Part shown: one piece after another, positions 571 to 19,607 of the stretch
How positions within the stretch are numbered: position 1 is the stretch's first letter
Layout of the letters: every line of letters starts with the position of its first letter
DNA from: a virus
Lineage: Duplodnaviria; Caudoviricetes
Reading direction: 5' to 3' (one strand)
IMG/VR virus record: IMGVR_UViG_3300005764_000083
Location: 1-24,690 of that record
Length of the DNA: 24,690 bases
Program-made: the position numbers and the translations under genes
The notes under the pieces: generated by a model
Told to the model about the DNA's origin: nothing
What the model saw: the letters and a program-made list of their open reading frames with translations, nothing else
Databases searched by the model: none

Positions 571-758
571 GCGAGGCGGCGCTTGAGCGGCTCCGCGCCG
601 AGCTCCCGCCGGTGCTCGAGGTCCCGCTGTGCCGCCACGGGCACGGGCCGCTCAACGGATGGCGGGCCCGCGGGCGGCGCCGTGGGCGCTATTGCCGCGC
701 GTGCAACGCCGCGGCGTTTCGGCGCTGGTACGATGCGCACCGCCGCACGGGACATTGA
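567..758 (+). CDS. Small Zn-finger-like protein (CRHGH...CRAC)
   Basis: GTGA overlap with the terL stop (alternative ATG at 564). The CxxGH-x17-CxxC pattern resembles Zn modules seen alone or attached to phage HNH proteins. Confidence 0.6.
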   Translation: MSEAALERLRAELPPVLEVPLCRHGHGPLNGWRARGRRRGRYCRACNAAAFRRWYDAHRRTGH

Positions 759-793
759 CGGCAGGGGGGGGCGCCCGCTACACGGGCCGGCCC
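755..793 (+). promoter_or_regulatory. Putative promoter motif, copy 1 (TTGACG-N18-TACACGGGCCGGCCC)
   Basis: Intergenic, upstream of the portal ATG. A related motif occurs at 4505-4544. Confidence 0.45.
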
Positions 794-805
794 GAGGCTA
801 ACGGG

Positions 806-3328: not shown

Positions 3329-3337
3329 GGGGGAAAA

Positions 3338-3541
3338 ATGAGGCGAGCGGCTCACTCTGGCACGCATCCGGAAGGATGCCCCTCGTGTATTACGGCGGCA
3401 GAAAAAAAGCGCATGCCGTGGCACAAAAGTTACCACGACATTTTGGCAACGCCGACCTATCGCCGGCAGATAGAGGCGAAGCATACCGCGGCGCTGCGCC
3501 GGGGCGCGGCACGGCTCCGCGCCGGGCAGCTCAAATTTTGA
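3338..3541 (+). CDS. Hypothetical basic protein, 67 aa
   Basis: Fills the gap between the portal and the next gene. G-rich RBS before the ATG. One CxxC. Confidence 0.5.
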   Translation: MRRAAHSGTHPEGCPSCITAAEKKRMPWHKSYHDILATPTYRRQIEAKHTAALRRGAARLRAGQLKF

Positions 3542-3551
3542 AGGGGCGATC

Positions 3552-4097
3552 ATGGCGGAAAAGTGGATCCAAGGCGCCATCAAGCGGCCCGGGGCGTTCA
3601 AAGCCAAGGCGAAAGCCGCGGGCAAGTCGACCTCGAGCTATGCGCGGCAAGTCTTAAAGCCGAGCTCGACGGCGTCGACGCGCACGAAAAAGCAAGCCGC
3701 GCTCGCGCAAACCTTGAGCAAACTGCGCTCGGGCAAGGCAAAATTCCTTGTGCCGCTCGTGCTCCTCGTCGCGACGGCGGCGCATGCGGCAACCAAGACA
3801 TGCCCGAGCGGCACGCTCGCGCCCGCGCCGATCACGGCGACAGGGCCGACAACCGATATCATCGTCGCGCGCGCGGCGCCCGCGCTGGTCATGCAAGCCT
3901 CGGGTACCGGGACCGCAACGGTGGTTATGGAAATGTCCTGTGACGGGACCAATTGGGCGCAAGTGACCAACTCGAGCATGAGCGTGCCGCCGAGTCAGGT
4001 TGTTTCCGTGTTGCAGCCAACGTGTAGTTATCGGGCGAATGTGACGGCGTGCACGACGTGCTCCATTACGGTGATCTATGCGTGCTCGGGGCCGTAA
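3552..4097 (+). CDS. Hypothetical protein: basic N-terminal domain, internal signal-peptide-like segment, Cys-containing beta-rich domain
   Basis: RBS AAGGGG. N-terminus KWIQGAIKRPGA...AALAQTLSKL, then FLVPLVLLVATAAHA, then a Thr/Val-rich region with 6 Cys. Confidence 0.75.
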   Translation: MAEKWIQGAIKRPGAFKAKAKAAGKSTSSYARQVLKPSSTASTRTKKQAALAQTLSKLRSGKAKFLVPLVLLVATAAHAATKTCPSGTLAPAPITATGPTTDIIVARAAPALVMQASGTGTATVVMEMSCDGTNWAQVTNSSMSVPPSQVVSVLQPTCSYRANVTACTTCSITVIYACSGP

Positions 4098-4368
4098 CGT
4101 GCTCGTGCTCGCGGTGCTCCTCGCCGCGCGCGTCGCCTCCGGTCAAGCCGCTGCGGGCTGCGGCCCGACGCACCATGGCTGTGGGCCCGGCGGGCGGGGC
4201 TCGTGTGGGGTCGGGAAACACGGGTGCGGCCCGGGCGGGGCCGGCACCCCGGTCAAGCGCGCGGGAGGGGGAGAGTATGCCCTTAATTCAATTGATCGTC
4301 GTGCTTATCGTCATTGGCCTGATTCTCTACTTGGTCGAGACGCTCTTGCCGCTCGACCCGGCGATTAA
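4078..4368 (+). CDS. Possible secreted Gly/Cys-rich peptide
   Basis: Signal-like MRARGRNVLVLAVLLAARVASGQAAA followed by GCGP repeats. Fills the 4098-4276 gap but overlaps both neighbours. Confidence 0.4.
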   Translation: MRARGRNVLVLAVLLAARVASGQAAAGCGPTHHGCGPGGRGSCGVGKHGCGPGGAGTPVKRAGGGEYALNSIDRRAYRHWPDSLLGRDALAARPGD

Positions 4369-4492
4369 GCAGGTGCTCCGGGTCGTGATTGTCATTGCGG
4401 TAATTCTCTGGTTGCTTTCCTTGGTTGGCTTGATTCCGGCTCGGATTAGCCGCGCCGACGGCGTTACGCCGCAAACTTGGGGCGTTACCTAA
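4277..4492 (+). CDS. Small two-TM membrane protein (Thivi_2564-like; holin candidate)
   Basis: Strong RBS GGGAGGGGG. MPLIQLIVVLIVIGLILYLVETLLPLDPAIKQVLRVVIVIAVILWLL gives two hydrophobic helices around a P-x-D-P-x-I-K loop. Confidence 0.8.
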   Translation: MPLIQLIVVLIVIGLILYLVETLLPLDPAIKQVLRVVIVIAVILWLLSLVGLIPARISRADGVTPQTWGVT

Positions 4493-4504
4493 GCCGCCCC
4501 CCTC

Positions 4505-4544
4505 TTGACACGCCCCCGGGGGCTCGTGGCACACGGGCCCGCCC
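4505..4544 (+). promoter_or_regulatory. Putative promoter motif, copy 2 (TTGACA-N19-CACACGGGCCCGCCC)
   Basis: Perfect TTGACA in an intergenic gap. The downstream element matches 780-793 at 13 of 14 positions. Confidence 0.45.
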
Positions 4545-4547
4545 ACG

Positions 4548-4928
4548 ATGGCACGCAAACGCGGCGCCGTGGGGAATGGCAAGGCGAAAGCGCTTGTGCC
4601 GCCCATGAAAGGCGCCAAGGCTCCGCCGGCCGGGCCGCCCCCGCGCGCCATGCGCGGCCGGGTCGCGCTCGCCATCCCCGTGCTGCGCGCGACGCCGACC
4701 CGTGGCCGCCCGGGGCCCGTGCCGACGCCGGGGCGCATGCCGCCCGGGCGCCTCCCGCCGCCCCCGCCCGTCGGCCGACGCGTGCCGATGGCGGCCGAAA
4801 CGCCGCGTGCCGAGCGCCTCGAGGCGCCCCCGATGGGGCCGCGGCCCTCGAGCACGTCGCCCCTCATGCGGCAACGCGGCGCCCGGCAAACGATGGCGGC
4901 CATGCGCCGCGGGAGCGTGCCTTTCTAA
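4548..4928 (+). CDS. Basic Pro/Arg-rich low-complexity protein
   Basis: ATG just after the promoter-like motif. TAATG coupling to the next gene. Confidence 0.65.
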   Translation: MARKRGAVGNGKAKALVPPMKGAKAPPAGPPPRAMRGRVALAIPVLRATPTRGRPGPVPTPGRMPPGRLPPPPPVGRRVPMAAETPRAERLEAPPMGPRPSSTSPLMRQRGARQTMAAMRRGSVPF

Positions 4929-5263
4929 TGCTCGGGGCCCCCGCCGGCGTCGACCCGCACGAGCTCGCGCAGCTCGTCGGCGAGCTCGAGGCGAGCGGGT
5001 ATCACGCCGCGCTCCGCGCCTACGTCGACGCGCGCATTGCGGTCCTCCTCGTCGACGACGTCACGGATCCCTACGTGGCCATGAAACGCCGCGGGCAAGT
5101 CGAGGAGCTCCAACGCCTGATTGTGCCGCTTTTCGTCAAGTCGCTGGCGCTCTCGGCGCTGGCCAAACGCGCCGAGGCACGCGCCGGGCTCGAGGCCGCC
5201 CGACCCGTCGAGCCGCGCCGCGAGTGGTGGCACGACCCCATTGTTGACGACCCGATACCCTAA
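4928..5263 (+). CDS. Hypothetical helical protein preceding the scaffold
   Basis: TAATG overlaps at both ends. 111 aa, MLGAPAGVDPHEL...DDPIP. Confidence 0.75.
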   Translation: MLGAPAGVDPHELAQLVGELEASGYHAALRAYVDARIAVLLVDDVTDPYVAMKRRGQVEELQRLIVPLFVKSLALSALAKRAEARAGLEAARPVEPRREWWHDPIVDDPIP

Positions 5264-6012
5264 TGGCTGACGAGCACCCAACCGCCCCCGCCCCCGAGAG
5301 CCCCACCCCCGACGCGCCGGCCCCCGAGGCCGGCGCCCCGCCGGCGGAGGATTGGGGCGCGCGGTTTTCGAAACTCGAGGGCGAGCTCGCGCATGAGCGC
5401 GCGCAGCGTGCGGCCCTCGAGGGCACGTTGCGCCTCCTCGCCCCGCAACCGCAAATGGCGCAGCAAGGGCCGCCGCCGCTCGTGCGCCTCCCGCGCGACG
5501 CCGCGCAACGGATTGCGGCCACGCTCGGCGGGCAATGGAACGAGGAGGCCGTGCAATCGCACGCGCCCATCTTCGCGGCATTCGGGCAGGAGCTCTTAGC
5601 ACCGCTGCTGCAAGGTATCGAGGGCATGGCCGATGTCGTCGACCTCTTACAAGTGCGGCAAGAGATTCCGCAATACGAAACGCAAGCCGAGGAGGCCGAC
5701 CGCGTGCGCATGGAGTACCGGCAACGCGGCCAAGTGATTACGCGCAAGCAAGCCGTTGCGCTCGTAAAGGCACGCCGCATGGACGACCCGAAATATGTTG
5801 ACACGTTGGTTGACGAGCGCGCCCGCGCTCGCTCCGCCGAGCACGCGCAGCGTGCCGCGGCCGCCGCTGGCGCCGTGACGGAGGGCGGGGCGAGTGCGCA
5901 GAAAGCCGGCCCCGAGCCGACCAAGGGCCCGCGCACGCCGCCGACGCGTGAGCAATTCGCGAATATGACGCTCGAGGAGAAACGTAAAGCGCTCGAGGGC
6001 GCCACGATCTAA
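5263..6012 (+). CDS. Capsid scaffolding protein (putative)
   Basis: Directly upstream of the capsid gene. Acidic/Pro N-terminus, coiled-coil character, C-terminal FANMTLEEKRKAL helix. Confidence 0.75.
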   Translation: MADEHPTAPAPESPTPDAPAPEAGAPPAEDWGARFSKLEGELAHERAQRAALEGTLRLLAPQPQMAQQGPPPLVRLPRDAAQRIAATLGGQWNEEAVQSHAPIFAAFGQELLAPLLQGIEGMADVVDLLQVRQEIPQYETQAEEADRVRMEYRQRGQVITRKQAVALVKARRMDDPKYVDTLVDERARARSAEHAQRAAAAAGAVTEGGASAQKAGPEPTKGPRTPPTREQFANMTLEEKRKALEGATI

Positions 6013-6024
6013 GAGGAGGCCGCC

Positions 6025-7356
6025 ATGCCCGGCAGTACCTATAGCTACAGTGATCCGGGGCTTAGTACCTCAACCACCCTCGTCAATGACCTCGCGCCGC
6101 TTTGGTTACAAGACGAGCTCTTGGCCATCGCGCAAAAGTTGACCGTGTTTCAGGACATCGGCGACTTGCCCAACATGCCCGATGGCGAGGGCAAGACGTA
6201 CAGCGCGCAGCGATACGAGCGCCTCCCGCTCCCGAATGCGCCGTTGAGCGAGGGTATCACGCCCGATAGCACCGCGTTGATTGTCAACAAGGTGACGGCG
6301 ATTCTCGAGCAATGGGGCATGGTCGTGTCGCTTTCCGACGTCGCCTTGATGACAACCAAGCATCCGGCGCTCACGGCGGCAAAAGACCGGCTCGGCAATG
6401 CGAGCGCCGAATTGCAGGACCGGGAAATCCAAAAGACGCTCATGGGTTCCGGCGTCGTCGTGTTCCCGGGTGGCAAGACCTCGAGGAGCACGCTCGCCGC
6501 CGGCGACGTGCCGACCACGGATTTCGTGTCGGGCATCGTCGCGACGCTGCGCCAGCTTGGCGCGCCGGTCTTTGCGGGCAGTCAGTACGCCGGCGTCGTC
6601 GACCCGTACCACGAGCAAGACCTCGCCAAGGATCAAACATTCGTCCTCTCGCATCAGTACGCCGAGACCACGGCGCTCATGAATGCCGAGATTGGGCGGT
6701 GGCGCGGCGTGCGGTGGAAGCGCTCGAACCTCCTCCCAATCATGGCGAGCCTCCCGACTGGCGCCGGCGGTGCCTCGGCAACCAACGCCACGCCGGGCAC
6801 GGGGGAAACCGGATTCACGGCCGGCTCGACGGTCAAGGTCACGGTGGCACTCGCCGACCCGATAACGGGGCTCGATACGAAGCAGATTGCGACGGCCAAC
6901 GTGACCAACGCGGCGGCGTACACGGTCAGCTACACGATCACGGCGACGGCCCCCGAGGGGCGGTACAACGTGTATGTGAGCGCGGAGGGCGGCACCGTGC
7001 CGACCTATCAAACGACCGTGCTGAAGCCCGTCGGCGCACAGTACGTCGGCGTGGTCGCCAAGGCCGTGACGAGCGCCGCCGCGGTCACGTCGGTCGGCTA
7101 CAGTGCGACAGGCGCCCCGGCGCAAGCGGATCCGCCGGCGACCGGCAACGTGCACGTCGGATACATTTTCGGCAAGAGCGCCTTTGCGGTGCCCGCGCTC
7201 GGCTCGCGCGTGGAAACGACCTTGACGCCGGCGACCGCGAGCGATTCCGACCCGCTCAAACAGCGGCGCAAGTGCGGATTCAAGTTCATGACCAAGACGT
7301 GCATTCTCAATACCGACTTTTTCCGGCGCTTCGAAGCCATGAGCGCCTTTGGTTGA
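6025..7356 (+). CDS. Major capsid protein, N4-gp56-like family
   Basis: RBS AAGAGGAGG. Motifs PLSEGITP, LEQWGMVVSLSD, EIGRWRGVRW and DSDPLKQRRKCGFK are characteristic of this HK97-fold family. Confidence 0.92.
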   Translation: MPGSTYSYSDPGLSTSTTLVNDLAPLWLQDELLAIAQKLTVFQDIGDLPNMPDGEGKTYSAQRYERLPLPNAPLSEGITPDSTALIVNKVTAILEQWGMVVSLSDVALMTTKHPALTAAKDRLGNASAELQDREIQKTLMGSGVVVFPGGKTSRSTLAAGDVPTTDFVSGIVATLRQLGAPVFAGSQYAGVVDPYHEQDLAKDQTFVLSHQYAETTALMNAEIGRWRGVRWKRSNLLPIMASLPTGAGGASATNATPGTGETGFTAGSTVKVTVALADPITGLDTKQIATANVTNAAAYTVSYTITATAPEGRYNVYVSAEGGTVPTYQTTVLKPVGAQYVGVVAKAVTSAAAVTSVGYSATGAPAQADPPATGNVHVGYIFGKSAFAVPALGSRVETTLTPATASDSDPLKQRRKCGFKFMTKTCILNTDFFRRFEAMSAFG

Positions 7357-7361
7357 TTCCG

Positions 7362-7904
7362 ATGGGACGCCCCCCCGGTCGCCCTCGTATGACGCCGGCG
7401 GGCGCGGTGCCGCCGGCGCCCGAGGAGCTCGACGGCGCCGAGGAGCTCGACGGCGCCGAGCTCGAGCCACTCGAGCCGCTCACCCCAGAGGACCTCGCCA
7501 CCGAGGCGCTCGAGGGGCGCCGCCGCTTGACGCCCGAGGTCGTGCGCGCGCTCAACGAGACGTGGCGCGACCTCGTGCAATACGACGACGACGCGAGCAA
7601 GCAACGCGCCCGGCGCATTGTCGGCATTCTCCGCCGGGCCAAGCATATCGAGCTGCACCCCGGATGCGCGCGCGTCCTCATCGACGTGCCGATGCTTCCC
7701 AACAAGCAATTTGTACGCGTCAACGAGCGCGTGTTTTACGGGAGCCACGAGGTATGGGAATGCGAGGCGCGCACCATTCTCGGGCTCGTGCATTGGGCCC
7801 GCGTCGTCGAGGCGCAACGGATGGACGACCGGCGGAGCGAGCACCCGACCATTGACCTCGATTCGCCGCTCGCCGAGCGGGCGCGGGCGATTCAACGCGC
7901 ATGA
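7362..7904 (+). CDS. Hypothetical protein following the capsid gene
   Basis: ATG 5 nt after the capsid stop. N-terminal GRPPGRPR, acidic EELDGA duplication, ATGA coupling to the next gene. Confidence 0.75.
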   Translation: MGRPPGRPRMTPAGAVPPAPEELDGAEELDGAELEPLEPLTPEDLATEALEGRRRLTPEVVRALNETWRDLVQYDDDASKQRARRIVGILRRAKHIELHPGCARVLIDVPMLPNKQFVRVNERVFYGSHEVWECEARTILGLVHWARVVEAQRMDDRRSEHPTIDLDSPLAERARAIQRA

Positions 7905-8257
7905 TGCCGCGAGGACCCGCCGCGCGGAACGGCTCGCCCGTGCCGCCCTTTTCCGGGCAGCTCGTCAAGGTGACGGGCGACGGCGAGCACGTCACGATTG
8001 CGTTTACGGCGCGCACGCCCGAGGAGCTCGAGGCCGCGCTCGCCGTTGCCGGCAACGCCGCCGTGCGCCGGTTGCACGCCAATAACGCCGCCGTGTTGAG
8101 CGCCGGCGAGCAATTCGAGCAACGGCAACGCCAAGTGTACCACAACGCGGTCGGGCAGCTCCGCCGAGAGCTCGGCTTGCCCGACCCGCCCGCGGAGGAG
8201 GACGCGACTCGTGCCGACAATCCCGCCGGGGCGGTACACGCGGCAGAAAATCCGTGA
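7901..8257 (+). CDS. Hypothetical protein, 118 aa
   Basis: ATGA overlap with the upstream stop. Protein-like composition. Confidence 0.65.
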   Translation: MMPRGPAARNGSPVPPFSGQLVKVTGDGEHVTIAFTARTPEELEAALAVAGNAAVRRLHANNAAVLSAGEQFEQRQRQVYHNAVGQLRRELGLPDPPAEEDATRADNPAGAVHAAENP

Positions 8258-8903
8258 TCTCGCGTTAAACCGCGCGGGCAATCGCGCCCTCGACGCCGAC
8301 GCCGCCGATTTTCTCGCCCAGCATCTTTTCGAGCTCTACACGCTCGCCGATTGGCCGTTTCTCTATGTGTCGGCGCCGCTCACGCTCACGGGCCCGACGG
8401 TCAACTTGCCCGCCGATTTTGTCACGGCGCAAGATGACCATGGGTTTCAAATCGTGGCGATTGACGGGAGCCCGCAAGCAAATTGCTTTGCGCTCGAGCT
8501 CTCGCCCGAGGAGCTCGCCGCCATCACGCCGGCGCGCGGCTCGAGCACGGGCGGCGTGCCGCTCTTTTGGGCCGTCTCGAGGAGCGACACCACGGCGACC
8601 GTGGCACCCGACCCGACGGGCCGGCGGATCGACGTCCTGTTGCGCTACAAGCGGCTCCCGCCCGACCCCGTGCCGGCCGACGAGCCCGCCGATATTCCGG
8701 TTTTCCCGTACCACAATTACCTTGTGCAAGCCGTGTTTGTGTTTGCGCTCGAGCACGAGCGCGACGCGCGCGCACAAGCGGAGGCCGCGGCCCGTGACAA
8801 TTTGCTGGGGATGATTCGCCGCGGCGCCGCGCCGCTGCGCTCGCAACGCGCCGATATTCCGCTCGACCCGGCCGTGTTTCGCCGGCCGTTCCGAGGCGAC
8901 TAA
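8211..8903 (+). CDS. Head-tail adaptor / tail tubular protein A-like
   Basis: RBS GGAGGAGG before the GTG. Helical N-terminus (IRDLALNRAG...DWPFL). Size and position before the nozzle gene fit. Confidence 0.7.
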   Translation: MPTIPPGRYTRQKIRDLALNRAGNRALDADAADFLAQHLFELYTLADWPFLYVSAPLTLTGPTVNLPADFVTAQDDHGFQIVAIDGSPQANCFALELSPEELAAITPARGSSTGGVPLFWAVSRSDTTATVAPDPTGRRIDVLLRYKRLPPDPVPADEPADIPVFPYHNYLVQAVFVFALEHERDARAQAEAAARDNLLGMIRRGAAPLRSQRADIPLDPAVFRRPFRGD

Positions 8904-10885
8904 TGCCGGGCGCGCCCGACCGCGAAACGCCGATTCCCGTTCGACGCTTTCAGGGAACCATGCTCGCGATTGACCCGGCGTTTGTGCCGCTCGGCTTTCT
9001 CTCGCGGTGCAACAATTGGATTCCCGACCCGACGTATGTGCTCACAAAGCGCCTCGGCTCGACCGTATGGCAAACCTTCCCGGGCGGCACGCGCATTGAC
9101 CCGCTCGTCTATACGACCGGCTCGGATGGGCACCGCTACCTCTATGCCGTTGCCGCGCCGGCGAGCGGCGATACCGGCGGCTCGCAAATTTATGTCTCAA
9201 TCGACGACGCCCCATTTGCCGCCGTGTCGAATGGCAAGTTTGCGACCGCAGCGCCGCGGCACGGCGTCGCCGGTATCGGCGACAATATCTTTTTCGGCAA
9301 CGATAGCGACCCGATTAAACAAGTGCCGCTCGGCGCCGCGGCGATTGACCTCGTCCAGCTCGGCGTCGCGAACGACACCGGCGCCACCGCGGTTTTCGTC
9401 GACGATCCCAACAGCAACTTGATTGCGGGCACGTATTCCTATCGCTGGGGCACGTACAACCAAAGCACGTTGCGGTGGACGGGGCTCGCGACAACCAAAA
9501 TGATCGCGACGCCGTCGACGAGCCGCGCCCGCCTCGTGTTCCGCGCGCCAACCGGCGGCCTCGCCGCGAACGAATTGTGGCACTTGTTTGTCGCCGGCGC
9601 CGACCAAATGATTGAGGGCGCGCACGACCAAACGCCCAACGGCCTCCCCGTCTCAACGGGCGCCGACCAATTCGCGTTGTATGACGACCCGTCGATTGAC
9701 GGCGACCCCGTGCCAATTCCGAGCACGGTCACGCGCCGCGGGTCGCATTTGGTCGGGCACCGCGGTTGCTTGTGGGGCGCCGGCGGCGTCGGGTCGGCGA
9801 AGCAACGCGCGTGGAGCTCGAGCGTCATTGTGCCCGGCCTCGAGCAAACGATTTTCAACCAAGGCGTGTTTTTTCCCGCCACCGCGTTGACGCGCGACTT
9901 AAATGACCCCGTAACGGCGCTCGCCGTGATTCCGCAATCTTCGGGCAGCATGCAACCGACGGCGCCACTCGCGATTTTTACCGCGGTGCAAACGTGGCTC
10001 TTTCAAGGCGATATGGTCGGCGACGCGTCGGCGTCGCTCACGCAAATGTCGGCCGAGGTCGGATGCCCGAGTGACCGCACGATCGTGGCGACGCCGGTTG
10101 GCGTGATCTTTTGCGGCAAGCGGAGCGTGTATCTCTTGTCGCCCGCGGCCGCCGAGCCGCGCGACATTGGCTGGCCGATTGAAAGTGCAATCCGCCAGAT
10201 TCCCGCCGTCGGCCGGGCCGTGTGTTGGGCCGTCTACCACCGCGGCTTTTACAAACTCGCGATTGTGGAGCCGGGCGGCGTCGAGCCCTCGGCATACTGG
10301 TGGCTTGACCTCCGCCGCGGCCTTGGCGACCCGCCGTCCTGGTGGGGGCCCCATACGATTCCGGCGTACACGGCGAGCACGCGCGCGCCGAATCATCCGA
10401 GCGAGGATGATCGGCAATGGGCCACGCTCGGCTCGAGCTCGACGGCGCCCGCGCAAATTTTGCGCCTCGACCAAACCGACGAATATACCGAGGACGGCGT
10501 GCCGCCCGTGCCGATCCAATCACGCATGACCTCGGCATACCTCGACGCTAACGCGCCGCTCACGCCGAAACTCGCGAAACGGGCGCGCGTGATTGCGCGC
10601 GTCAGTGCGAAAACGTCGCTCGCCGTAACTGTCTCGGGCGATGAAGCGACCTCGGCGAGCGGCCTCCTCCCGCTGAATGCGTCGCTCGGCGGCGTGTGGG
10701 ACCAAAGCGCGTGGAATACGGCGCAATGGGTCGTGTCGGCGCTCGTGTTAGCGGAATGGGAATTGCCCGTGCCTGAGATTCGCGCGCGCGCGTTTCAAGT
10801 CAGCTTGGCGCATACCGACGCCGTGCGGTGCGACCTCCGTGATTTTGAGCTGCGCGTACAACCGTCGGCGAGGGAAACCCGCTAA
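8903..10885 (+). CDS. Tail nozzle / head-stabilisation protein (P22 gp10 or T7 gp12-like, beta-propeller)
   Basis: 660 aa, beta-rich. N-terminal NNWIPD...LTKRLG and VGCPSDRTIV...GVIF motifs. TAATG coupled at both ends. Confidence 0.75.
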   Translation: MPGAPDRETPIPVRRFQGTMLAIDPAFVPLGFLSRCNNWIPDPTYVLTKRLGSTVWQTFPGGTRIDPLVYTTGSDGHRYLYAVAAPASGDTGGSQIYVSIDDAPFAAVSNGKFATAAPRHGVAGIGDNIFFGNDSDPIKQVPLGAAAIDLVQLGVANDTGATAVFVDDPNSNLIAGTYSYRWGTYNQSTLRWTGLATTKMIATPSTSRARLVFRAPTGGLAANELWHLFVAGADQMIEGAHDQTPNGLPVSTGADQFALYDDPSIDGDPVPIPSTVTRRGSHLVGHRGCLWGAGGVGSAKQRAWSSSVIVPGLEQTIFNQGVFFPATALTRDLNDPVTALAVIPQSSGSMQPTAPLAIFTAVQTWLFQGDMVGDASASLTQMSAEVGCPSDRTIVATPVGVIFCGKRSVYLLSPAAAEPRDIGWPIESAIRQIPAVGRAVCWAVYHRGFYKLAIVEPGGVEPSAYWWLDLRRGLGDPPSWWGPHTIPAYTASTRAPNHPSEDDRQWATLGSSSTAPAQILRLDQTDEYTEDGVPPVPIQSRMTSAYLDANAPLTPKLAKRARVIARVSAKTSLAVTVSGDEATSASGLLPLNASLGGVWDQSAWNTAQWVVSALVLAEWELPVPEIRARAFQVSLAHTDAVRCDLRDFELRVQPSARETR

Positions 10886-11889
10886 TGGCCGTCATTCAAC
10901 GCCCCGCCAAGCAAGGCAATGCGACGACGTATCAAGGCAAAGTCGCGCAAGGCTACACGGGCATTTTGGCCGCCGAGGTCGACGCCGACCTAGACACGAT
11001 TTACGCCGCATGGAATGGCGGCGTCGATACCGTCAACATTGCCGCGGGCTCAATTACCGCCGACAAAATTGCGCCGAATCAAATCGGCACGCGCGAGCTC
11101 GCCGACCTCGGCATTGCAACCGGCGATCTTGGCAATCTACAAGTCACGACGCCGAAACTTGCCGACGGCGCGGTCACGCTCGCGAAACTGGACCCGGCCG
11201 TGAAAACGGCGGGCGGCGATTTGAGCGGCCAGTATCCCAACCCGGCGGTCGCGACAATCAACTCGGGCGTGCTCGAATATGCGCCGCGCGGTTCCGTGAG
11301 CGCTTGGTCGGGCGGCTTGGATTTTATGGCCAATGGCTCGGGCTCGCCGAGCCAAGACAATACAAAAACCGCGTGGATATGGCGCCTCGCCTATCCAAAT
11401 GACCAAGTCGAGCTCTACCGCGCGCCCGCCGGCGGTTTCAATTACGTGAATATCTTTTCGATCAACAACGCCGGGAAAATCAGCGGCGGGGCGGCAACCG
11501 GCGCGCGACAACACTTCAGCCCGACCGCACTGACGATCACGACGTATGACGTCGTCGTGCTCTGCTACACGTTGCCCGCGATCACGACGCGGGGCGGGGC
11601 GGTGCACCTCCATTTTCTGCATTCGTTCTACTACACGTCGTCATCGACCTCGGGAAACGTCATGATTACGACGGCCATCTGGCGCAATGGCGCGCCGGTT
11701 GTCTCGTTCGGGCAACGCATCGGGAGCGGTGGGGCACAAGTCGTGGTCCCGGTGTCGCCGATTTCGTGGGTCGATAACGTGGCGGCTGGGACCTATACCT
11801 ACGACCTCCGTATCCAAGTACAGAGCGGGACCGGGGCCTCCATCATCGCCACGCAATACGGGGACCTCGTAGCGCAGGAGATTGGCTAA
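10885..11889 (+). CDS. Tail fibre / receptor-binding protein
   Basis: AEVDADLDTI head domain, 10-residue repeats (ITADKIA, IATGDLG, VTTPKLA, VTLAKL), GGDLSGQYPNP motif, beta-rich C-terminal domain. Confidence 0.75.
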   Translation: MAVIQRPAKQGNATTYQGKVAQGYTGILAAEVDADLDTIYAAWNGGVDTVNIAAGSITADKIAPNQIGTRELADLGIATGDLGNLQVTTPKLADGAVTLAKLDPAVKTAGGDLSGQYPNPAVATINSGVLEYAPRGSVSAWSGGLDFMANGSGSPSQDNTKTAWIWRLAYPNDQVELYRAPAGGFNYVNIFSINNAGKISGGAATGARQHFSPTALTITTYDVVVLCYTLPAITTRGGAVHLHFLHSFYYTSSSTSGNVMITTAIWRNGAPVVSFGQRIGSGGAQVVVPVSPISWVDNVAAGTYTYDLRIQVQSGTGASIIATQYGDLVAQEIG

Positions 11890-12274: not shown

Positions 12275-12900
12275 TTCGCCGCGCCGTCTTCGCCGACGTG
12301 CCGGCCCTCCGCCGGCTGTATGCGGCGCTCCTCGCCGACTTGGCCGCCACGGAGGCGCCGACATATCCGGCGTATGGGCCGGCCGACCTCGACAGCTTTA
12401 CGCTGTGGGCCGCGCGGCACGTTGAGCAAGATCCAACCGTGCTCCTCTATGTCGCCGTTGACGACGACAGCGGAGAGCTGGTCGGGTTTCTCGGCGGAGA
12501 GATCTCTGAGCGTATGATGGGGGAGCCGCGCGTGTTTGGCTCCGCGCATTGGCTCTATATCGCGCCGACGCACCGCGGCCGCGGCCTCGCCCGCGAGCTC
12601 GTTGCGCTCGGCGTCTCGGACCTCGAGGCGCTCGGCGTGTCGCACGTCGAGCTCGCGACCATCGCGGGCGACACGCAATGGCAAGCCCGGGGTTGGGTGC
12701 CCTTCCTTGTGCACCATGCCTTGCCGCTCGAGGCCGTGCGGGCCGGCGTCGCCGAGCGCCCCGCCGTCGACCAACCCACCTCGGCGACCTCGACGGCGCC
12801 GGCCCCTCCTCCTCCGCCCGCGGCCGCGGCCCCGCGCAAACGGCGCCGGCGGCGGCGGGCGGCCCCGCGGCCGAAACTCGTTGCCGGGGGCCGCGCGTGA
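12271..12900 (+). CDS. GNAT family N-acetyltransferase 1, with Pro/Arg-rich C-terminal tail
   Basis: IRRAVFADVPAL start, LVGFLGG strand, acyl-CoA-binding motif A WLYIAPTHRGRGLARELV. Confidence 0.88.
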   Translation: MIRRAVFADVPALRRLYAALLADLAATEAPTYPAYGPADLDSFTLWAARHVEQDPTVLLYVAVDDDSGELVGFLGGEISERMMGEPRVFGSAHWLYIAPTHRGRGLARELVALGVSDLEALGVSHVELATIAGDTQWQARGWVPFLVHHALPLEAVRAGVAERPAVDQPTSATSTAPAPPPPPAAAAPRKRRRRRRAAPRPKLVAGGRA

Positions 12901-13409
12901 GTCTCGTGATCCGCACCGCCGAGCCAAGCGACCGGCATAACCTCGAGCTCTTACTCGCCGCTCTCATGCGCGAGCATCAACGCACCTTCCCGGCCGCGTA
13001 TCCGGTCTTTCCGCACGTTGAGGAGGCCGCCGCCTATGTCGCCGCCGGCTACGCCGAGCGGCTTGCACATGATTCCAGCTTGGTCGCCGTGCTGGCCGCC
13101 GACCGCGCGCCCGTGGGGTTGCTCGTGGGGGAGGTATGCGCGCGTCCCGTCGGCCGGCCGGCGACCGTGTGTTTCGTCGAATGGTTCTACGTCGAGCCGC
13201 CGGCGCGCGGGCAAGGGATTGGCCGTGAGCTCGTGCGCGCCGGGCTCACGATTCTTCGCACCCACGGCGTGACGCACGTTGAGTGCCAAAGCGTGCCCGG
13301 CGACCGGCAATGGCAACGGCGTGGGTGGCAAGAAACCGCGCGCCGCTATGTGGCGCCATTCGGCGACGTGGCCACATGGTGCGGCCTCGAGGAGCACGAC
13401 CATGCATGA
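12897..13409 (+). CDS. GNAT family N-acetyltransferase 2
   Basis: GTGA overlap. IRTAEPSD start, motif A WFYVEPPARGQGIGRELV. Visible paralog of the upstream GNAT. Confidence 0.88.
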   Translation: MSLVIRTAEPSDRHNLELLLAALMREHQRTFPAAYPVFPHVEEAAAYVAAGYAERLAHDSSLVAVLAADRAPVGLLVGEVCARPVGRPATVCFVEWFYVEPPARGQGIGRELVRAGLTILRTHGVTHVECQSVPGDRQWQRRGWQETARRYVAPFGDVATWCGLEEHDHA

Positions 13410-14727
13410 GGATAGCCGCCGCTATCATCGCACGCGGCCGCCCACGTTTACGCGGGCGTATGGCTCGCAACAAACGACGCCACAGGTTGTCTCGCCGTAT
13501 GGCGGCCTCCCGGCACAGATTGCCGGGCGTATCAGTCGCCAGCAGCTCTCGCCGCTTCTCCTCGGGCTCGGCGCCGGTCAGGGGCCGAAATATCAGAAAC
13601 TCATGGCCGACATTCGAAGCGGCCGTGCCTCGGGCCCGCTCGCGTCGGCCATTCAGCAGATCCAAGGGTTTGCGCCCGGCGTGATTGGCGGCGCAACCGA
13701 CATTGGCAAGCAAGTTTCCGCCATGGGCGGCCCGGCGACGCAGCAGTTACAAGCCGCCATTACCGCCGCACAAGCACAAATGCCGCAGTATCAGCAAGGT
13801 ATCAACCAAGCGTTCAGCGCCGACCAAGCGGCCTTGCAGCAAGCGCAAAACCTCTATGGGCAAGCGTCGGCGATGCTCCCGGGTTTGCAGCAAACTGCCG
13901 CGCAGGGCACGGCGGGCGCGCAGCAAGCCTTGACGGCCGCGCAGGGCTACATGACCGGGCCGCAGATGCAGGCCGCGCAAGCGCAGCTCGCCCGTGCGCA
14001 AGGGCTCTTGCAGGGGGGCCAAGCCGAAACGGGCGCGGGGCAAGCGCTCACGCTGGCGCAGCGCTACGCGCAGCAAGCCGCGTCGCCAATTGCCAACGAG
14101 GACCTCTATCAGATGGCGGCCCGGCGCGCGCTCGCGCAAGTGCGCCCCGGGCTCGCCGCGCGCGGCCTCGAGGCCGGCGGCGCCGGCGTGCAAGCCGAGA
14201 GCGACGTGTCGCGCGATCTCGCTTACCAGTTTGCTCAGAATCAAGCCGCGCAGCGGCAAGCGACCTTGCAGGGGTTGACGGGCGCCGCCAGCGGCCTCGG
14301 GAATATCCAATCGCAAGCACAGCAAAACGTCGGCGCCGCGGCGGGGAGCCTCGGCAATTTGCAGCAGCAAGGCCTGCAGGGGCTTGAGGGCGCAAGCACC
14401 AACGTCCAGCAAGCGGCACAGAATCAAGCCGCGCTCGGGCAAACTATGCTCCCGTATTTGCAGGCAATTCAGCAAGGCGGCGGGCAGCTCGGGCAAGCCG
14501 CGCAGCAAGGGGCGGCGATGGCCATGACCGGCCCCGAGCTCGCGCAGCAGCAATTTAATGCCATTCAACAGTATGGCAACACGCTCATGCAGCAATATCA
14601 ATTGCCCATGCAGGCAGCGGGCAATCTCACAAACTTGCTCACGGCGGGCATGTCGCCCGGCTTGTCCATGCTGCAAGCGACGTCGCCGCAAGTCGCGAGC
14701 TCGAGCAAGCAACAGCAATACCTATGA
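13402..14727 (+). CDS. Probable internal virion / DNA ejection protein 1 (Gln/Ala/Gly-rich) with N-terminal leader
   Basis: RBS GAGGAG before ATG 13402. Long Q/A/G-rich helical sequence at the position of podoviral ejection genes. Confidence 0.72.
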   Translation: MHEDSRRYHRTRPPTFTRAYGSQQTTPQVVSPYGGLPAQIAGRISRQQLSPLLLGLGAGQGPKYQKLMADIRSGRASGPLASAIQQIQGFAPGVIGGATDIGKQVSAMGGPATQQLQAAITAAQAQMPQYQQGINQAFSADQAALQQAQNLYGQASAMLPGLQQTAAQGTAGAQQALTAAQGYMTGPQMQAAQAQLARAQGLLQGGQAETGAGQALTLAQRYAQQAASPIANEDLYQMAARRALAQVRPGLAARGLEAGGAGVQAESDVSRDLAYQFAQNQAAQRQATLQGLTGAASGLGNIQSQAQQNVGAAAGSLGNLQQQGLQGLEGASTNVQQAAQNQAALGQTMLPYLQAIQQGGGQLGQAAQQGAAMAMTGPELAQQQFNAIQQYGNTLMQQYQLPMQAAGNLTNLLTAGMSPGLSMLQATSPQVASSSKQQQYL

Positions 14728-15323
14728 GGCACGACGATTCCCGGCGGTATCATCGCACGCGGCGCCCGCCGCATGCGCGGGCGTATGGGATGCTCGGCGC
14801 CATTGGCAGCGGCCTCGAGAGCGCCGCCGGCGCCGTCGGGAGCGGGCTCGAGAGCGCTGCGGGCTCCGTGCTTGGGGGCGCTGGCAAGACCGCGCTCTCG
14901 GGGCTCGAGAGTGTCGGGCAAGGCGTGCAATCGCTCTTTAGCGCGGCCCCGACCGAGGCCGAGCGGATCGCGGCCCTCGGGCAAACGGTGCCCGAGGGCG
15001 TCGACCTTGTCGGCCCGAGCCCGACGTTTACGGGCCCCGGGTTTCTGCAAAGTGTGGCGCAGGGCTTTGTGCACGGGCCGCAGCAGTATGCCAACCCGAG
15101 CGCCGCGACGAGTCTCGGGCAAGGCGTTGGCGGCCTCTTGCAAGCGCTCGACCAAATGAACGCCGGGCGGCGCGGCGGCGCCGGCATGTCCTTCCAGCCG
15201 ATTGTCGGCGGCGTCACCGGCGTGCAACCGTTGCAGGGGCCGAAAGTGGTCGCGGGCGGCGCGCCCCCGATGGGGTCGGGGCCGATCATGAGCATGATTG
15301 GCCAGCTGTTCAAGGCGTTCTAG
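14724..15323 (+). CDS. Probable internal virion / DNA ejection protein 2 (Gly-rich amphipathic) with the same leader
   Basis: ATGA overlap. Repeats of GSGLESAAG. Leader shared with the 13402 gene. Confidence 0.72.
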   Translation: MRHDDSRRYHRTRRPPHARAYGMLGAIGSGLESAAGAVGSGLESAAGSVLGGAGKTALSGLESVGQGVQSLFSAAPTEAERIAALGQTVPEGVDLVGPSPTFTGPGFLQSVAQGFVHGPQQYANPSAATSLGQGVGGLLQALDQMNAGRRGGAGMSFQPIVGGVTGVQPLQGPKVVAGGAPPMGSGPIMSMIGQLFKAF

Positions 15324-18011
15324 ATGGGCGACTCACCCGTTTTTGACACGCTCAAGAACGTCGCCGGCTACGGTGTCGGCACGCTCGCGGCGCTCACCAC
15401 GATTAAGTCGGGCGGGCTCGGCAACTACTTAATGAATCGGCAGCGCATGTTGCAGGACCCGAATTTCCGGGCGTCGCTCGAGGGCTCGCCGTTTGCGGCG
15501 GGCGTGTTTGGCGTGTCGGGCTCGAGGGGTGCGGCACCCGCATTGCCGCAGCTCCCCGCCCCGGGCGGCGTCGCGCCCCCGAGTGACGCCCTCGGGCCGC
15601 CCGCCGCGGGGCAGCCCGCCGCGGCAGCGGGGCCATGGGCCGGTGGCTACGTCTACCCAGGCGTCGGCGGGGCCGGCCCGCCAGCGCCCGGCGTGCAACC
15701 GCAGCTCCCGACGCCGACGGCGCAAAACGTCCCCGGCTACGAGCCCGGCACGCCCCGCATGTGGCACCCGTACTTGTCGCCCTACGCGCCCAAGACCGCG
15801 CTTGAGGAGCAAGGGCTGGCGACGACGGAAATCGGCGTGACGTCGCCCGACCCCACGCAACGCGCACAGTTCAAAATGGCGGGCGGCATCCCGCTCAACG
15901 CGCAAGAACAGGACGCGGCCGTGAGGGCCGCCCAGCGGATGCAAGCCCTCGGCGGCCCGGGCACGGTCGTCAAGCTGGATATCCCGGGCATGACCACCAA
16001 CGTCGGGAGCCCATACAATTTCTCGGCGGTTACGTCGGAAGAGTATCCGACGTATGCCTCGGCAGCAGCCGCCGCCGCGGCACGCAATGCGAATATCCCG
16101 GCCGGGAATCCGCAGTGGCAAGTCGTGCCCTCGGGCCGCGGCACGTTCTTGCTCTCGCAGCCCGCGACGCAACAGCAAGTGACGCCGCCGGCGCAACCGC
16201 CCAACGTGCAACAGGCCGGCGCACCGCCCGCGACCCCGCCAGCCACCGCGCCGCGGCCGCCGGCGACACCACCCGCGCGCCCGCCGACGCCACCACCGCA
16301 GCCCGGGCCATACGCGGGCGGCTATGCCTATCCGCAGACCCCGCCGCAGCAGCCCGCGCCGCCACCGGCCGCACCACCTCCGCCACCGCCCGCCGCCGCC
16401 GCACCGCCACCGGCGCCACCACCGCCGCCCCCGTCGTCGCCATTCGACCGCGACGCCATCGTGCCGCATGTCGAGCTCGAAAGCGCCGCCCCACCACCCG
16501 CCGCTGCGCCAACTCCCGCGGCAGCAAACGTTCCGATCTATCCCGCCCCGCAAGGGTTTGTGTTCCACCATTCCGGCGGCACGACGCTCGCAGGATTGCG
16601 CGCGACGCTGCAAGACCGCGGCCTCGGCTCCGAATATCTCATGGACCGAGACGGAACGATTTACGCCTATGGCGCGCCCGGGTCGCCGCACATGCAGCCC
16701 AACGACCGCTGGGGCGGCATCGCGCCCGGGCTCTCGAATCGCAACGCGCTCGGGATGGAGCTCGTGGCCCGCGACAACAACGACGTGACGCCCGCGCAAA
16801 TCGCCTCCGCCCGGAACTTCATTGCGACCAACTACCCGAATACGCCCGTCTACGGGCACGGCGAAGTCAACCCCGGGCACAAGCAAGCAGATGAGGGGAT
16901 GGCGCCCGTGAACGCGATTCGGAGCGACCGCGCTGCCCCCGTCCAGCTCGCAGCGGCCGCGCCGGCGGAGGACCGCACCATCGCGTTTCCGTCGGCCGGG
17001 TTTGTCGATACGGGACCGACCGCCCCGCAGCTCAACATTCCCACCGTGCCGCAACCGCCCGTCGTACAGTCGCCGACGCCCCCTCCGCTGCCACCACCCC
17101 GGCCGGCCGCGACGGGGCCGACCGTGCTGACGGGGCCGCAGAATTATCCGCCCGGGCAACAAATGCCTATGACGGGCGAGACCCGCCGCACGGCCGAGGG
17201 CGAGCAAACCTTCCGCGCACCCGACGCGAGCAACGCCGATGTGCGCGCGAATCTCACGTGGAACGGGATTACCAACCTCGATACCGCAAACCAGCAACAG
17301 GTGTGGAATTACTGGCAAACGCAGCGCTACCTTGACCGGCAAAAGCTGACGGATACGGCGGAGATTCAACGCACGCAAAAGGCCATGCTCGAGGGTGGCG
17401 GCCCGGGGTATCTGGCGCTCACGACCACACGCGACAATCTCAATAAATTTCTGACCGATTTCCCCGACGCGGCGACCCGCTCGCACTATCTTGGGCTCCT
17501 CCGCCACGGGGGCCAAGAGCTCAAGCAGGTCTGGGCCGCTGACCCGGCCGTGGCGCGCTTCAATAGCGACCTCGCGTTACTGGGCGTCCCGGTCGAGGGT
17601 GGCTCATGGATCGGGGAAAAACTCGGGCTCCCGAGCGGGAGCTCCCTCATGCCGAGCGAGCGTACGGCCCTCAAGAGTGTGCTCCCAAGCGCGTGGCAGG
17701 AGCCAGCAACCTTCGAGCAAAACTTACAAAACTATCGTGACAGCATCGACAGTTCAATTCAGTTGCGGGATTTCCTCGCCGGGCGCACCGTCGGCTCCAC
17801 AAGCAGCAAAGACGTAGACGCCTATCTCCAAAACATGAATGATGAGCGGAAACAGCGTCGGCTCGATTCCTTCCAAACGACGCAGCCCCCGAGCGCCACG
17901 CCACCCACGACGACACCCCCAAGTACAACGCCACCGACCACCACGCCGCCGGCCGCGTCCCCGCCCGGCGCGCCCGCATGGTCGCCGACGGCCACCTGGA
18001 CGATTCAATAG
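15324..18011 (+). CDS. Probable DNA ejection protein 3 with an internal N-acetylmuramoyl-L-alanine amidase (Amidase_2-like) domain and Pro-rich linkers
   Basis: 895 aa. FVFHHSGG, YLMDRDGTIY, NRNALGMEL, TPAQIAS and VYGHGEV occur in Amidase_2/PGRP motif order (about 16530-16900). Confidence 0.8.
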   Translation: MGDSPVFDTLKNVAGYGVGTLAALTTIKSGGLGNYLMNRQRMLQDPNFRASLEGSPFAAGVFGVSGSRGAAPALPQLPAPGGVAPPSDALGPPAAGQPAAAAGPWAGGYVYPGVGGAGPPAPGVQPQLPTPTAQNVPGYEPGTPRMWHPYLSPYAPKTALEEQGLATTEIGVTSPDPTQRAQFKMAGGIPLNAQEQDAAVRAAQRMQALGGPGTVVKLDIPGMTTNVGSPYNFSAVTSEEYPTYASAAAAAAARNANIPAGNPQWQVVPSGRGTFLLSQPATQQQVTPPAQPPNVQQAGAPPATPPATAPRPPATPPARPPTPPPQPGPYAGGYAYPQTPPQQPAPPPAAPPPPPPAAAAPPPAPPPPPPSSPFDRDAIVPHVELESAAPPPAAAPTPAAANVPIYPAPQGFVFHHSGGTTLAGLRATLQDRGLGSEYLMDRDGTIYAYGAPGSPHMQPNDRWGGIAPGLSNRNALGMELVARDNNDVTPAQIASARNFIATNYPNTPVYGHGEVNPGHKQADEGMAPVNAIRSDRAAPVQLAAAAPAEDRTIAFPSAGFVDTGPTAPQLNIPTVPQPPVVQSPTPPPLPPPRPAATGPTVLTGPQNYPPGQQMPMTGETRRTAEGEQTFRAPDASNADVRANLTWNGITNLDTANQQQVWNYWQTQRYLDRQKLTDTAEIQRTQKAMLEGGGPGYLALTTTRDNLNKFLTDFPDAATRSHYLGLLRHGGQELKQVWAADPAVARFNSDLALLGVPVEGGSWIGEKLGLPSGSSLMPSERTALKSVLPSAWQEPATFEQNLQNYRDSIDSSIQLRDFLAGRTVGSTSSKDVDAYLQNMNDERKQRRLDSFQTTQPPSATPPTTTPPSTTPPTTTPPAASPPGAPAWSPTATWTIQ

Positions 18012-18020
18012 GCCACGCCC

Positions 18021-19607
18021 ATGGCCGTCCAGTTTTCCTACATGCAGCAAAATCCCGACGGCTCCGTCAGCACGCAAGGGGGGGTCGCCGACCGCGCGCC
18101 GACGTGGGGCGAGCTGCAAGACCATGTCGCCTCGACGGGCGCTACGCTGCTGCCCGCGACGCCCGCCGCGCCATCCGTGTCGCGCCAGCCACCCGACGCC
18201 GCGCCCCCGCCCGAGGCCGCCGCGTCGCCCGCGCCCGCGTGGGCGCCGACGCGTGGGGAGCAAGCTGCGGCGAGCGCCGCGCAAGCGGTCGAGCAAGCGA
18301 TGCCCGCGCGACCGACGGCGCGCTATCTCGTGCCGTCCAGCTTGGCGACCGCCGGTGCACTCGCGCTCCCCGCCGTCGCGACGATGTTTCTCGGGCCGCT
18401 CGGGCCGTTTGCACAAGCCGGGTTAGCCGCGCTCGGGGCCGGCCTCGGCGGTGGCGCGGGCGAGTACGGGCAAGCAAAAGGCGAGGAATACCTCTACGGG
18501 CCGCCGCCGCCCGGGTCCCCGACGCCATTCGAACGCGCGGTCACCTTTGCCAACACGGTGGCGCCCGTCGAGGCCGGCGTGCAAGTCGCGACCCCGCTCG
18601 TGCTCCCGGCCGCGCGGAAGATTGCGGCGCCCCTTGGGAGCGAGGCGGTCTCAGGTGCCGCCAACGCCCCGGTGCTGACCACGGGCGCGTTCGGGGGCGA
18701 GCCCGGCACGATCCGGGCCGGGCAAAGCGCCGCACGCGCCGTCGCGCAGGATATCGAGGCGGGCCACGCGACCACGTCTATCCGGGTCGGGACGGCGGCA
18801 CCCGACGCGCCCATCAATACCGACAGCTTGCCGCCCCTCGTCGCGCAAACGCGGGCGGCACTGGCCCGCCAAGGGGCGACCGACGCCGAGCTCGCCACGT
18901 TTGATAAAAACATGACGCCGATCTCGCAAGGCGGCCCGCAACCGCTCACAAACGTGCTCAGCGCCGAGCGGCACTTGAACACGTGGGCGTCGCGCGTGCC
19001 GAGCGACGCTCAAATCCCCGAGCTGAACACACTGGGGACCAACACGCGCAACGCCATTTCTGCCGGCGTTGAGGGCACGCCCGCGGCGCGACCGTGGCAA
19101 CAGTACTTGAGCGACCAAGCCGGTACCGGGCCGACGCGGAGCGTGCTCCACCAAGCGGCCGACGCGGCTCCTGAGCAATTCCAGCCGTGGCTTCACGCCG
19201 AGGGCCAGCAAGGGCTTGACGCCATCGTCAACCAGGGGACCCCCGAGGCCCGCGCCGCCGTCGGGCGTGCGTGGCTCGCCTCCGTGCGGCAAGGGGCGCG
19301 CACCGCCGTCGACCCCGTCAAGTACGTCGGCGATGCCTACGAGGCGCTCCCGGTCAACTATCGCACGGCACTCTTTGGCGACCAATCACCCGACATTGCG
19401 CAGCTCATTAGCGCGGCGCAGAGCTCGCCGAAGTTCTTACTGCCCAAGATCGGCGTCCCGATCGCGCAACCGTGGGCGCGTCAGGTCCTCATGTCGCCGA
19501 CAGCAGCGGCCGTCACTCGCGGGGCGACCGGGCTTGCGACTGGAGCCGGCAGGACGGCGCTCTATACGGCGGCGGCGGAGGCAAACGAGCCGAAGCCCCA
19601 GCCCTAG
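18021..19607 (+). CDS. Probable DNA ejection protein 4 (Ala-rich with hydrophobic Gly-rich segment)
   Basis: Last gene of the + operon. Segment LATAGALALPAVATMFLGPLGPFAQAGLAALGAGLGGGAG is typical of membrane-interacting ejection proteins. Confidence 0.68.
   Translation: MAVQFSYMQQNPDGSVSTQGGVADRAPTWGELQDHVASTGATLLPATPAAPSVSRQPPDAAPPPEAAASPAPAWAPTRGEQAAASAAQAVEQAMPARPTARYLVPSSLATAGALALPAVATMFLGPLGPFAQAGLAALGAGLGGGAGEYGQAKGEEYLYGPPPPGSPTPFERAVTFANTVAPVEAGVQVATPLVLPAARKIAAPLGSEAVSGAANAPVLTTGAFGGEPGTIRAGQSAARAVAQDIEAGHATTSIRVGTAAPDAPINTDSLPPLVAQTRAALARQGATDAELATFDKNMTPISQGGPQPLTNVLSAERHLNTWASRVPSDAQIPELNTLGTNTRNAISAGVEGTPAARPWQQYLSDQAGTGPTRSVLHQAADAAPEQFQPWLHAEGQQGLDAIVNQGTPEARAAVGRAWLASVRQGARTAVDPVKYVGDAYEALPVNYRTALFGDQSPDIAQLISAAQSSPKFLLPKIGVPIAQPWARQVLMSPTAAAVTRGATGLATGAGRTALYTAAAEANEPKPQP

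Follow-up and report, generated by a model that had tools for sequence, protein, structure and literature searches.

A leader shared by two predicted ejection proteins of a short-tailed phage, best read as a host-trimmed propeptide

In a 24.7-kb virus record from an uncultured soil phage (hereafter the window, by which we mean the whole stretch of DNA analysed), two adjacent and otherwise unrelated predicted ejection proteins, E1 and E2, begin with the same leader. Our best reading, by analogy with P22 gp7, is that the leader is a propeptide trimmed by the host and lying beside the usual helper GNAT; judging from its distribution among relatives, it is probably not a docking site for the adjoining GNATs, the role that an earlier note made from the DNA alone had proposed for it. 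We give slightly less than an even chance to the specific proposal that the shared 21-residue peptide is an optional propeptide, cut by a host peptidase near the junction of [YF] and [GS] to leave a small-residue N-terminus on the predicted ejection proteins.

Results

The window and its predicted ejection genes

Together with an integrase, the window carries a short-tailed-phage virion module that includes portal and adaptor (both SU10-type Pfam), major capsid, fibre, two GNATs and four long low-complexity ORFs, E1 to E4 (Table 1). Both ORFs upstream of E1 are GNATs of PF00583, as the earlier note had them, and the stop of the second overlaps the start of E1. We call E1 to E4 predicted ejection proteins from gene position, composition and the muralytic domain in E3, not from a family match: E1, E2 and E4 matched no Pfam family, E1 and E2 matched no PHROG, the Atlas search gave no score above 0.77 for E2, and for E1 it gave a lead rather than a match (score 0.92, to a cluster with 21% P22_gp7 members).

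Table 1. Features of the window, with strand and the basis of each assignment
Feature	Position	Strand	Basis
Upstream virion module (portal, scaffold, capsid, adaptor, nozzle, fibre)	629..11889	+	SU10 portal/adaptor Pfam; PHROGs for major head and tail fibre; position alone for scaffold and nozzle
GNAT1, 209 aa	12271..12900	+	PF00583, E 1e-9; phrog_1249; pLDDT 87.9
GNAT2, 170 aa, GNAT1 paralogue	12897..13409	+	PF00583, E 1.2e-10; pLDDT 89.2; fold matches
E1 leader, 21 codons	13402..13464	+	Consensus D[ST]RR[YL]H-x8-R-x-[YF]-[GS]
E1, 441 aa, Gln/Ala/Gly-rich, predicted first ejection protein	13402..14727	+	Position after nozzle, fibre and GNATs
E2 leader, 22 codons, clade A only	14724..14789	+	Putative copy, gained once; E1 tree with outgroups
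E2, 199 aa, Gly/Ala-rich, hydrophobic start after leader, predicted ejection protein	14724..15323	+	No family match
E3, 895 aa, amidase domain, no leader, starts MG here	15324..18011	+	PF01510, E 6.8e-7
E4, 528 aa, predicted last ejection protein, no leader	18021..19607	+	Leader profile finds nothing on E4

Several features of the module are recorded here in their own right. In the ORF at 3552-4097, a basic N-terminal peptide (phrog_20603) is fused to a segment resembling a signal peptide and to a domain with Cys, and a similar fusion occurs in G001. E3 swaps muralytic domains, with an amidase in the window and an SLT transglycosylase in G002 (loci include L170:12151-14634), and at L288:13359-14717 an amidase-like stretch opens a separate ORF. 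Host labels conflict: a contig that the nozzle profile found in a Gaiellales bin holds a clade-B module (L290), while an E1 homologue (P0082) is labelled Steroidobacteraceae. The E1 profile found no relative among genome contigs.

A leader shared by E1 and E2

By translation the leaders read MHEDSRRYHRTRPPTFTRAYG (E1) and MRHDDSRRYHRTRRPPHARAYG (E2), and their 18-residue cores are identical at 14 of 18 positions; the runner-up ungapped 18-mer among 120 N-terminal pairs from 16 window proteins, a match of 8/18, lies between the GNAT paralogues. Past the leader, BLASTP returns weak low-complexity matches only (best E 0.048), which bears out the earlier claim that two otherwise unrelated predicted ejection proteins share it. 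A 60-nt DNA repeat (78%; D3) underlies both leaders, and the synonymous differences named earlier are present, with Ser encoded by AGC in one copy and TCC in the other and Arg-Arg by CGC CGC and CGG CGG. An alternative start of E2 at ATG 14790 was rejected as unlikely, because the start at 14724 overlaps the E1 stop (ATGA) and because 8 of the 34 leader-bearing E2 have a residue other than Met directly behind the leader.

The leader is kept in homologues, a point on which the earlier note had staked its case. Its Asp, His and Gly are invariant in a 63-row leader alignment (A4), and its RR varies, DTRHLH, DSSRYH and DSQRYH all being seen. In a fixed 18-codon register with all codons counted, pN/pS is 0.14 for the E1 leader (35 rows) and 0.31 for the E2 leader (32 rows, two of the 34 E2 leaders having been excluded for a one-residue deletion); these values come from rows picked by pattern, which favours conserved rows, and from pairwise counts that are not independent. 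Synonymous sites are free to vary (pS 0.46-0.56 vs pN 0.06-0.17). Together these comparisons support a leader that is translated, conserved and under selection at the protein level, as the earlier note had argued from the synonymous differences. The two leaders do not evolve in concert: E1 and E2 leaders are as similar between genomes as within one (0.719 vs 0.719, p 0.45, 27 genomes), so homogenisation of the copies was rejected.

The search that the earlier note recommended places the leader on these two families. A 25-position leader profile, so short that its reach is limited, matched 10 proteins at E <= 0.001 among 1.84 billion representatives, all of them E1 or E2 family by inspection, and this search found no host protein bearing the leader. 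Across the window and two complete relatives, the profile matches E1 and E2 only and finds no leader on capsid or scaffold. A degenerate DNA scan for the leader gave 48 stretches, of which 16 were inspected: all belonged to E1 or E2 except five, which matched by chance and ended in a stop.

Distribution in the near family

E1 homologues number 131, and among the 120 listed the leader is present on 108 (104 by pattern and four by eye), the remaining 12 being truncated or called from a later start. At the junction of the 104 pattern-matched leaders the residues are YG in 68, FG in 30, FS in five and WG in one, so that the residue following the aromatic is Gly in 99 and Ser in five. After reduction of 121 locus records to 81 distinct E1 loci, E2 is leader-bearing in 34 and leaderless in 27, another ORF takes its place in three, and 17 loci stop before E2. 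The leaderless E2 start with MG (17), MA (9) or MS (1). In the place of the leader, leaderless homologues carry nothing but Met in front of Gly, Ser or Ala. Leader-bearing E2 continue after the junction with G-M-L, G-I-L or G-L-L, and leaderless E2 often start with G-F-L, A-F-L or A-W-M, though several begin with G-D, G-G or G-S rather than with G-hydrophobic.

Among loci in which a pattern assigned the E1 leader to a type, the state of E2 follows that type. With a type A leader (...TFxRAYG, then S or Q), E2 bears a leader in 29/29 clade-A loci; with a type B leader (...ERLRxYG, then K), E2 is leaderless in 20/20 clade-B loci, starting MG in 13 and MA in seven. Both clades retain two GNATs. 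The third predicted ejection protein behaves differently: the earlier observation that it starts MG stands for the window and does not extend to relatives, in which E3 starts MG in 18, MD in 27 and otherwise in four of 49. The argument that processing would place an N-terminal Gly on all three ejection proteins therefore fails.

Some loci depart from the common arrangement. A third, longer E1 leader type has an H-S-S-R-A-L-H core and ends R-x-F-G-K (L157:5986; P0084, P0098, P0101), and it comes with a leaderless E2 starting MS. Two loci (L017:8607 and L098:1271) carry a 208-215 aa ORF, HNH endonuclease-like by eye, between E1 and E2, with MG at the start of the ORF that follows. An in-frame fusion of GNAT2 with a leader-bearing E1 (P0078, 579 aa) is a single record and possibly a sequencing slip at the overlap. 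One 54-kb viral contig (L046 and L048) holds two related but distinct GNAT-E1-E2 modules about 37 kb apart, which represent either two prophages or a chimeric assembly. On a short contig (L107:530) E1 has an in-frame stop after about 115 codons, probably an assembly error.

Distant relatives and the history of the leader

The nozzle profile reached six distant phages with nozzle identities of 31-39%, each of which has one GNAT of the window's GNAT family directly before its E1 homologue (profile E 1e-23 to 1e-36). In three of the six, E1 is leaderless and starts MGSGG, MSGNA or MSGSS (start context checked); in two (L287 and L288), E1 bears the same leader beside a single GNAT; and in L286, E1 has a different leader, rich in Arg and again with R-G-Y-G at its end. 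Outgroup E2 could be read in two cases (L283 and L285), both leaderless.

In a quick E1 tree built with leaders removed, clade A forms one side of a branch with support 93, and L287, L288 and the leaderless L289 fall together with support 100, in a tree that carries long-branch and composition warnings and an outgroup sample of six on long branches. Given this grouping and the leaderless outgroup E2, the simplest history is that E2 acquired its leader once, on the clade-A stem. Use of the GNAT paralogues as root (also a quick tree) does not confirm this direction, for it places the GNAT1 root inside clade A, at odds with the E1 tree.

The GNATs

GNAT1 consists of a GNAT domain of about 160 aa, a Pro/Ala linker and an Arg-rich tail; its end (window 12750-12900), a Pro/Ala linker followed by an Arg/Lys run, looks like a separate basic tag. 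The motif A signature R..G.[GA] is present in 45/45 aligned rows of GNAT1 and 43/51 rows of GNAT2. Both GNATs also have D-x-Q-W-x-x-R-G-W (48/51 and 45/45 rows in alignments A2 and A3), with the Trp kept in the outgroup L220; in many GNATs this position is the catalytic Tyr. Structural models of GNAT1 and GNAT2 are confident (pLDDT about 88 and 89), and the fold matches are generic acetyltransferases that point to no particular substrate and no long acyl chain. The GNAT1 model matches a GNAT of Roseobacter phage CRP-4 (E 6e-6), and a tblastn search of annotated phages with GNAT2 found nothing.

The window's GNATs have the fold, and the place between the tail genes and the first ejection gene, that mark the podophage helper (T7 gp13, P22 gp14, cobavirus pc40), and they are likely to be this usual helper seen before podophage ejection genes. 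P22 gp14 (DUF2824) presumably has the GNAT fold as well. By sequence, the GNATs gave no Pfam match to gp13 (PF11090) or gp14 (PF11039), and hhalign of shallow GNAT profiles against single P22 gp14 and T7 gp13 sequences was non-significant (E 0.08-0.17).

GNAT1, GNAT2, E1 and the leader state of E2 co-segregate as a block, and the nozzle does not: of 18 nozzles from clade A, 12 share just 48-57% identity with that of the window, below most clade-B nozzles. This allows for a coupling between GNAT and leader, and adjacency and linkage account for the block too. A predicted complex of both GNATs with two CoA and residues 1-45 of E1 (score 0.01, mark 0.32) weighs neither way.

Discussion

A removable propeptide

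The closest known arrangement is that of P22, in which gene 14 lies directly before gene 7 and the first 20 residues of gp7 are cut off by host OpdA (record annotation). As in P22, a small helper gene precedes the first ejection gene, whose product carries a leader of about 20 residues. In excerpts of the P22 literature, mature gp7 starts KGGKG and deletion of the leader still permits a burst of about 60% (PMC8402733), and the cut precedes assembly (PMC4992974). The gp7 leader is thus optional and needs no phage protease, and we propose the same for the leader of E1 and E2. The two systems also differ: P22 cuts between E and K, and gp7 alone carries an annotated leader, whereas in the window two proteins share one; the helper in the window is a duplicated GNAT, unlike gene 14; and the E1/E2 leader has no sequence likeness to that of gp7, nor are the proteins matched (no Pfam match of E1 or E2 to PF25688, hhalign probability 0.2 between E1 and gp7). 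The leader arrangement would thus work like that of P22, yet E1 is outside the gp7 family by sequence.

The exchange of leader for initiator Met before a small residue fits a cut between [YF] and [GS]. A host peptidase would remove the leader near this aromatic-small junction and so give E1 or E2 the same small N-terminal residue that Met removal would give their leaderless relatives; until assembly the leader may mask the N-terminus, or solubilise or chaperone it; it would have been copied once, from E1 to E2; and any modification by a GNAT would recognise the mature N-terminus and not the leader. We infer a host enzyme because no Prp protease was found in two complete relatives, and because the 66 ORFs selected from G001 and G002 yielded no prohead or other stand-alone protease, only S74 chaperone domains inside fibre genes. 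Some observations fit a P22-like propeptide less easily. Strict analogy with P22 would put the cut one residue later, which in clade-B E1 falls between G and K and leaves no N-terminal Gly. Purifying selection on the leader is stronger than a nearly dispensable P22-like leader would predict, and the invariance of Asp and His, far from the junction, suggests a binding surface rather than a cut site alone.

Two other phage systems bear on this reading. The capsid and scaffold of the staphylococcal phage 80alpha share a leader that host Prp cuts between an aromatic and a small residue (PMC9405229, excerpt). The leader described here resembles it in being common to two virion proteins and in its junction, and differs in that the L27-type motif MLxx(D/N)LQ(F/L)F'A(S/H)KK is absent and that neither capsid nor scaffold bears it. 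In T4, one short N-terminal peptide targets IPI, IPII and IPIII to the capsid and is removed at maturation (PMC9026906, excerpt). Here, too, the same peptide stands on dissimilar internal-type proteins, and in contrast to T4, whose tag has 10 residues and which uses its own protease gp21, no such protease was found among the 66 selected ORFs and some homologues lack the tag.

Other roles for the leader

The T4 precedent raises the alternative that the leader is a capsid-loading tag, which binds the portal, the scaffold or another core protein, was copied to load E2, and is perhaps cut later. This is possible, although on balance unlikely. Its invariant Asp and His agree with a tag, as does its restriction, across the window and two complete relatives, to unrelated proteins of internal type. 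The 27 loci with leaderless E2 and the three distant phages with leaderless E1 belong to otherwise similar modules, however, E3 and E4 have no leader, no prohead protease was found among the 66 selected ORFs, and P22 gp7 itself binds procapsids through residues 21-154 and not through its leader (PMC8402733, excerpt).

Alternatively, the leader could be retained uncut, as a basic arm that helps to order ejection by contacts within the virion, either with DNA or with an acidic surface of tail or portal. Its Arg-rich composition, the extra Arg kept in the E2 linker and the failure to find a protease in the ORFs and relatives surveyed above are what such an arm predicts. We nonetheless regard it as improbable, since the fixed aromatic-small junction and the leaderless Met-plus-small starts fit processing better, and the different leader of L286 converges on the same R-x-Y-G end.

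The earlier note had suggested a RiPP-like system, in which the leader docks the GNAT pair and the pair acylates the Gly exposed by cleavage. Several observations are in keeping with it: two GNATs directly precede E1 across the near family, motif A, which binds CoA, is preserved in them, leader type segregates together with the GNATs and E1, and the junction of the 104 pattern-matched E1 is always an aromatic followed by Gly or Ser. Set against these, leader and GNATs are separable. A GNAT stands before a leaderless E1 in three of the six distant phages, leader goes with a single GNAT in two of them, and clade B has two GNATs and one leader, so that the number of GNATs does not follow the number of leaders and the proposed dependence of GNAT on leader is not supported. 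The frequent MD starts of E3, and fold matches to generic acetyltransferases with no pointer to a long-chain acyl pocket, weigh in the same direction, and we consider this role quite improbable.

Finally, the view that the repeat acts as DNA or RNA (in translation coupling, in recombination or as a conversion tract) or encodes a Tat-type export signal, the peptide being incidental, is largely refuted and scarcely credible, because, for all that there is a direct repeat, that both copies overlap the upstream stop and that the S-R-R triplet resembles the Tat motif, synonymous sites are free, the copies are not homogenised within genomes, RR is not invariant and E1 continues after the leader with polar residues in place of a hydrophobic segment. 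A Tat signal peptide has an invariant twin Arg followed by a hydrophobic segment, and that identity was rejected for the leader.

Implications for the helper GNAT and for ejection

Helper GNATs of this kind have been noticed before. The cobavirus pc40 GNAT, beside internal virion genes, has already been likened to T7 gp13 (PMC6775973, excerpt), and such a GNAT has also been treated as a metabolic gene (PMC6918029, excerpt). The window shares with these the adjacency of GNAT and internal virion genes and differs in having two paralogues. T7 gp14, which has no leader, starts MCWAAAIP, by eye like the leaderless E2 starts. The literature searched held no report of a substrate for the helper GNAT, and a search that reached few subscription papers gave no report of acylated ejection proteins; the available parts of PMC9728967, PMC8954989, PMC4837284, PMC7824862 and bioRxiv 10.64898/2026.05.18.726046 make no mention of ejection-protein acylation.

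A removable propeptide would be compatible with a further step, gated N-terminal acylation, which we think rather unlikely: Met removal or host cleavage of the leader would expose a Gly, Ser or Ala amine, and the adjoining phage GNAT would acylate it, priming the protein for membrane entry, with the leader as a timer that was copied to the second ejection protein. If this were true, the long-unexplained gp13/gp14-type helper gene would gain a substrate, and a GNAT beside ejection genes is common in short-tailed phages. The window's family offers natural matched pairs, in which the same ejection protein occurs with a leader or with Met-Gly/Ser/Ala and beside one or two GNATs, and these permit a direct test of whether the GNAT acts on the exposed N-terminus and of whether the leader serves for cutting, for loading or for both. 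If the system is merely the biology of P22 gp7 again, it would still add a new family of leaders and a clear-cut example of one virion protein's leader being copied to another, unrelated one.
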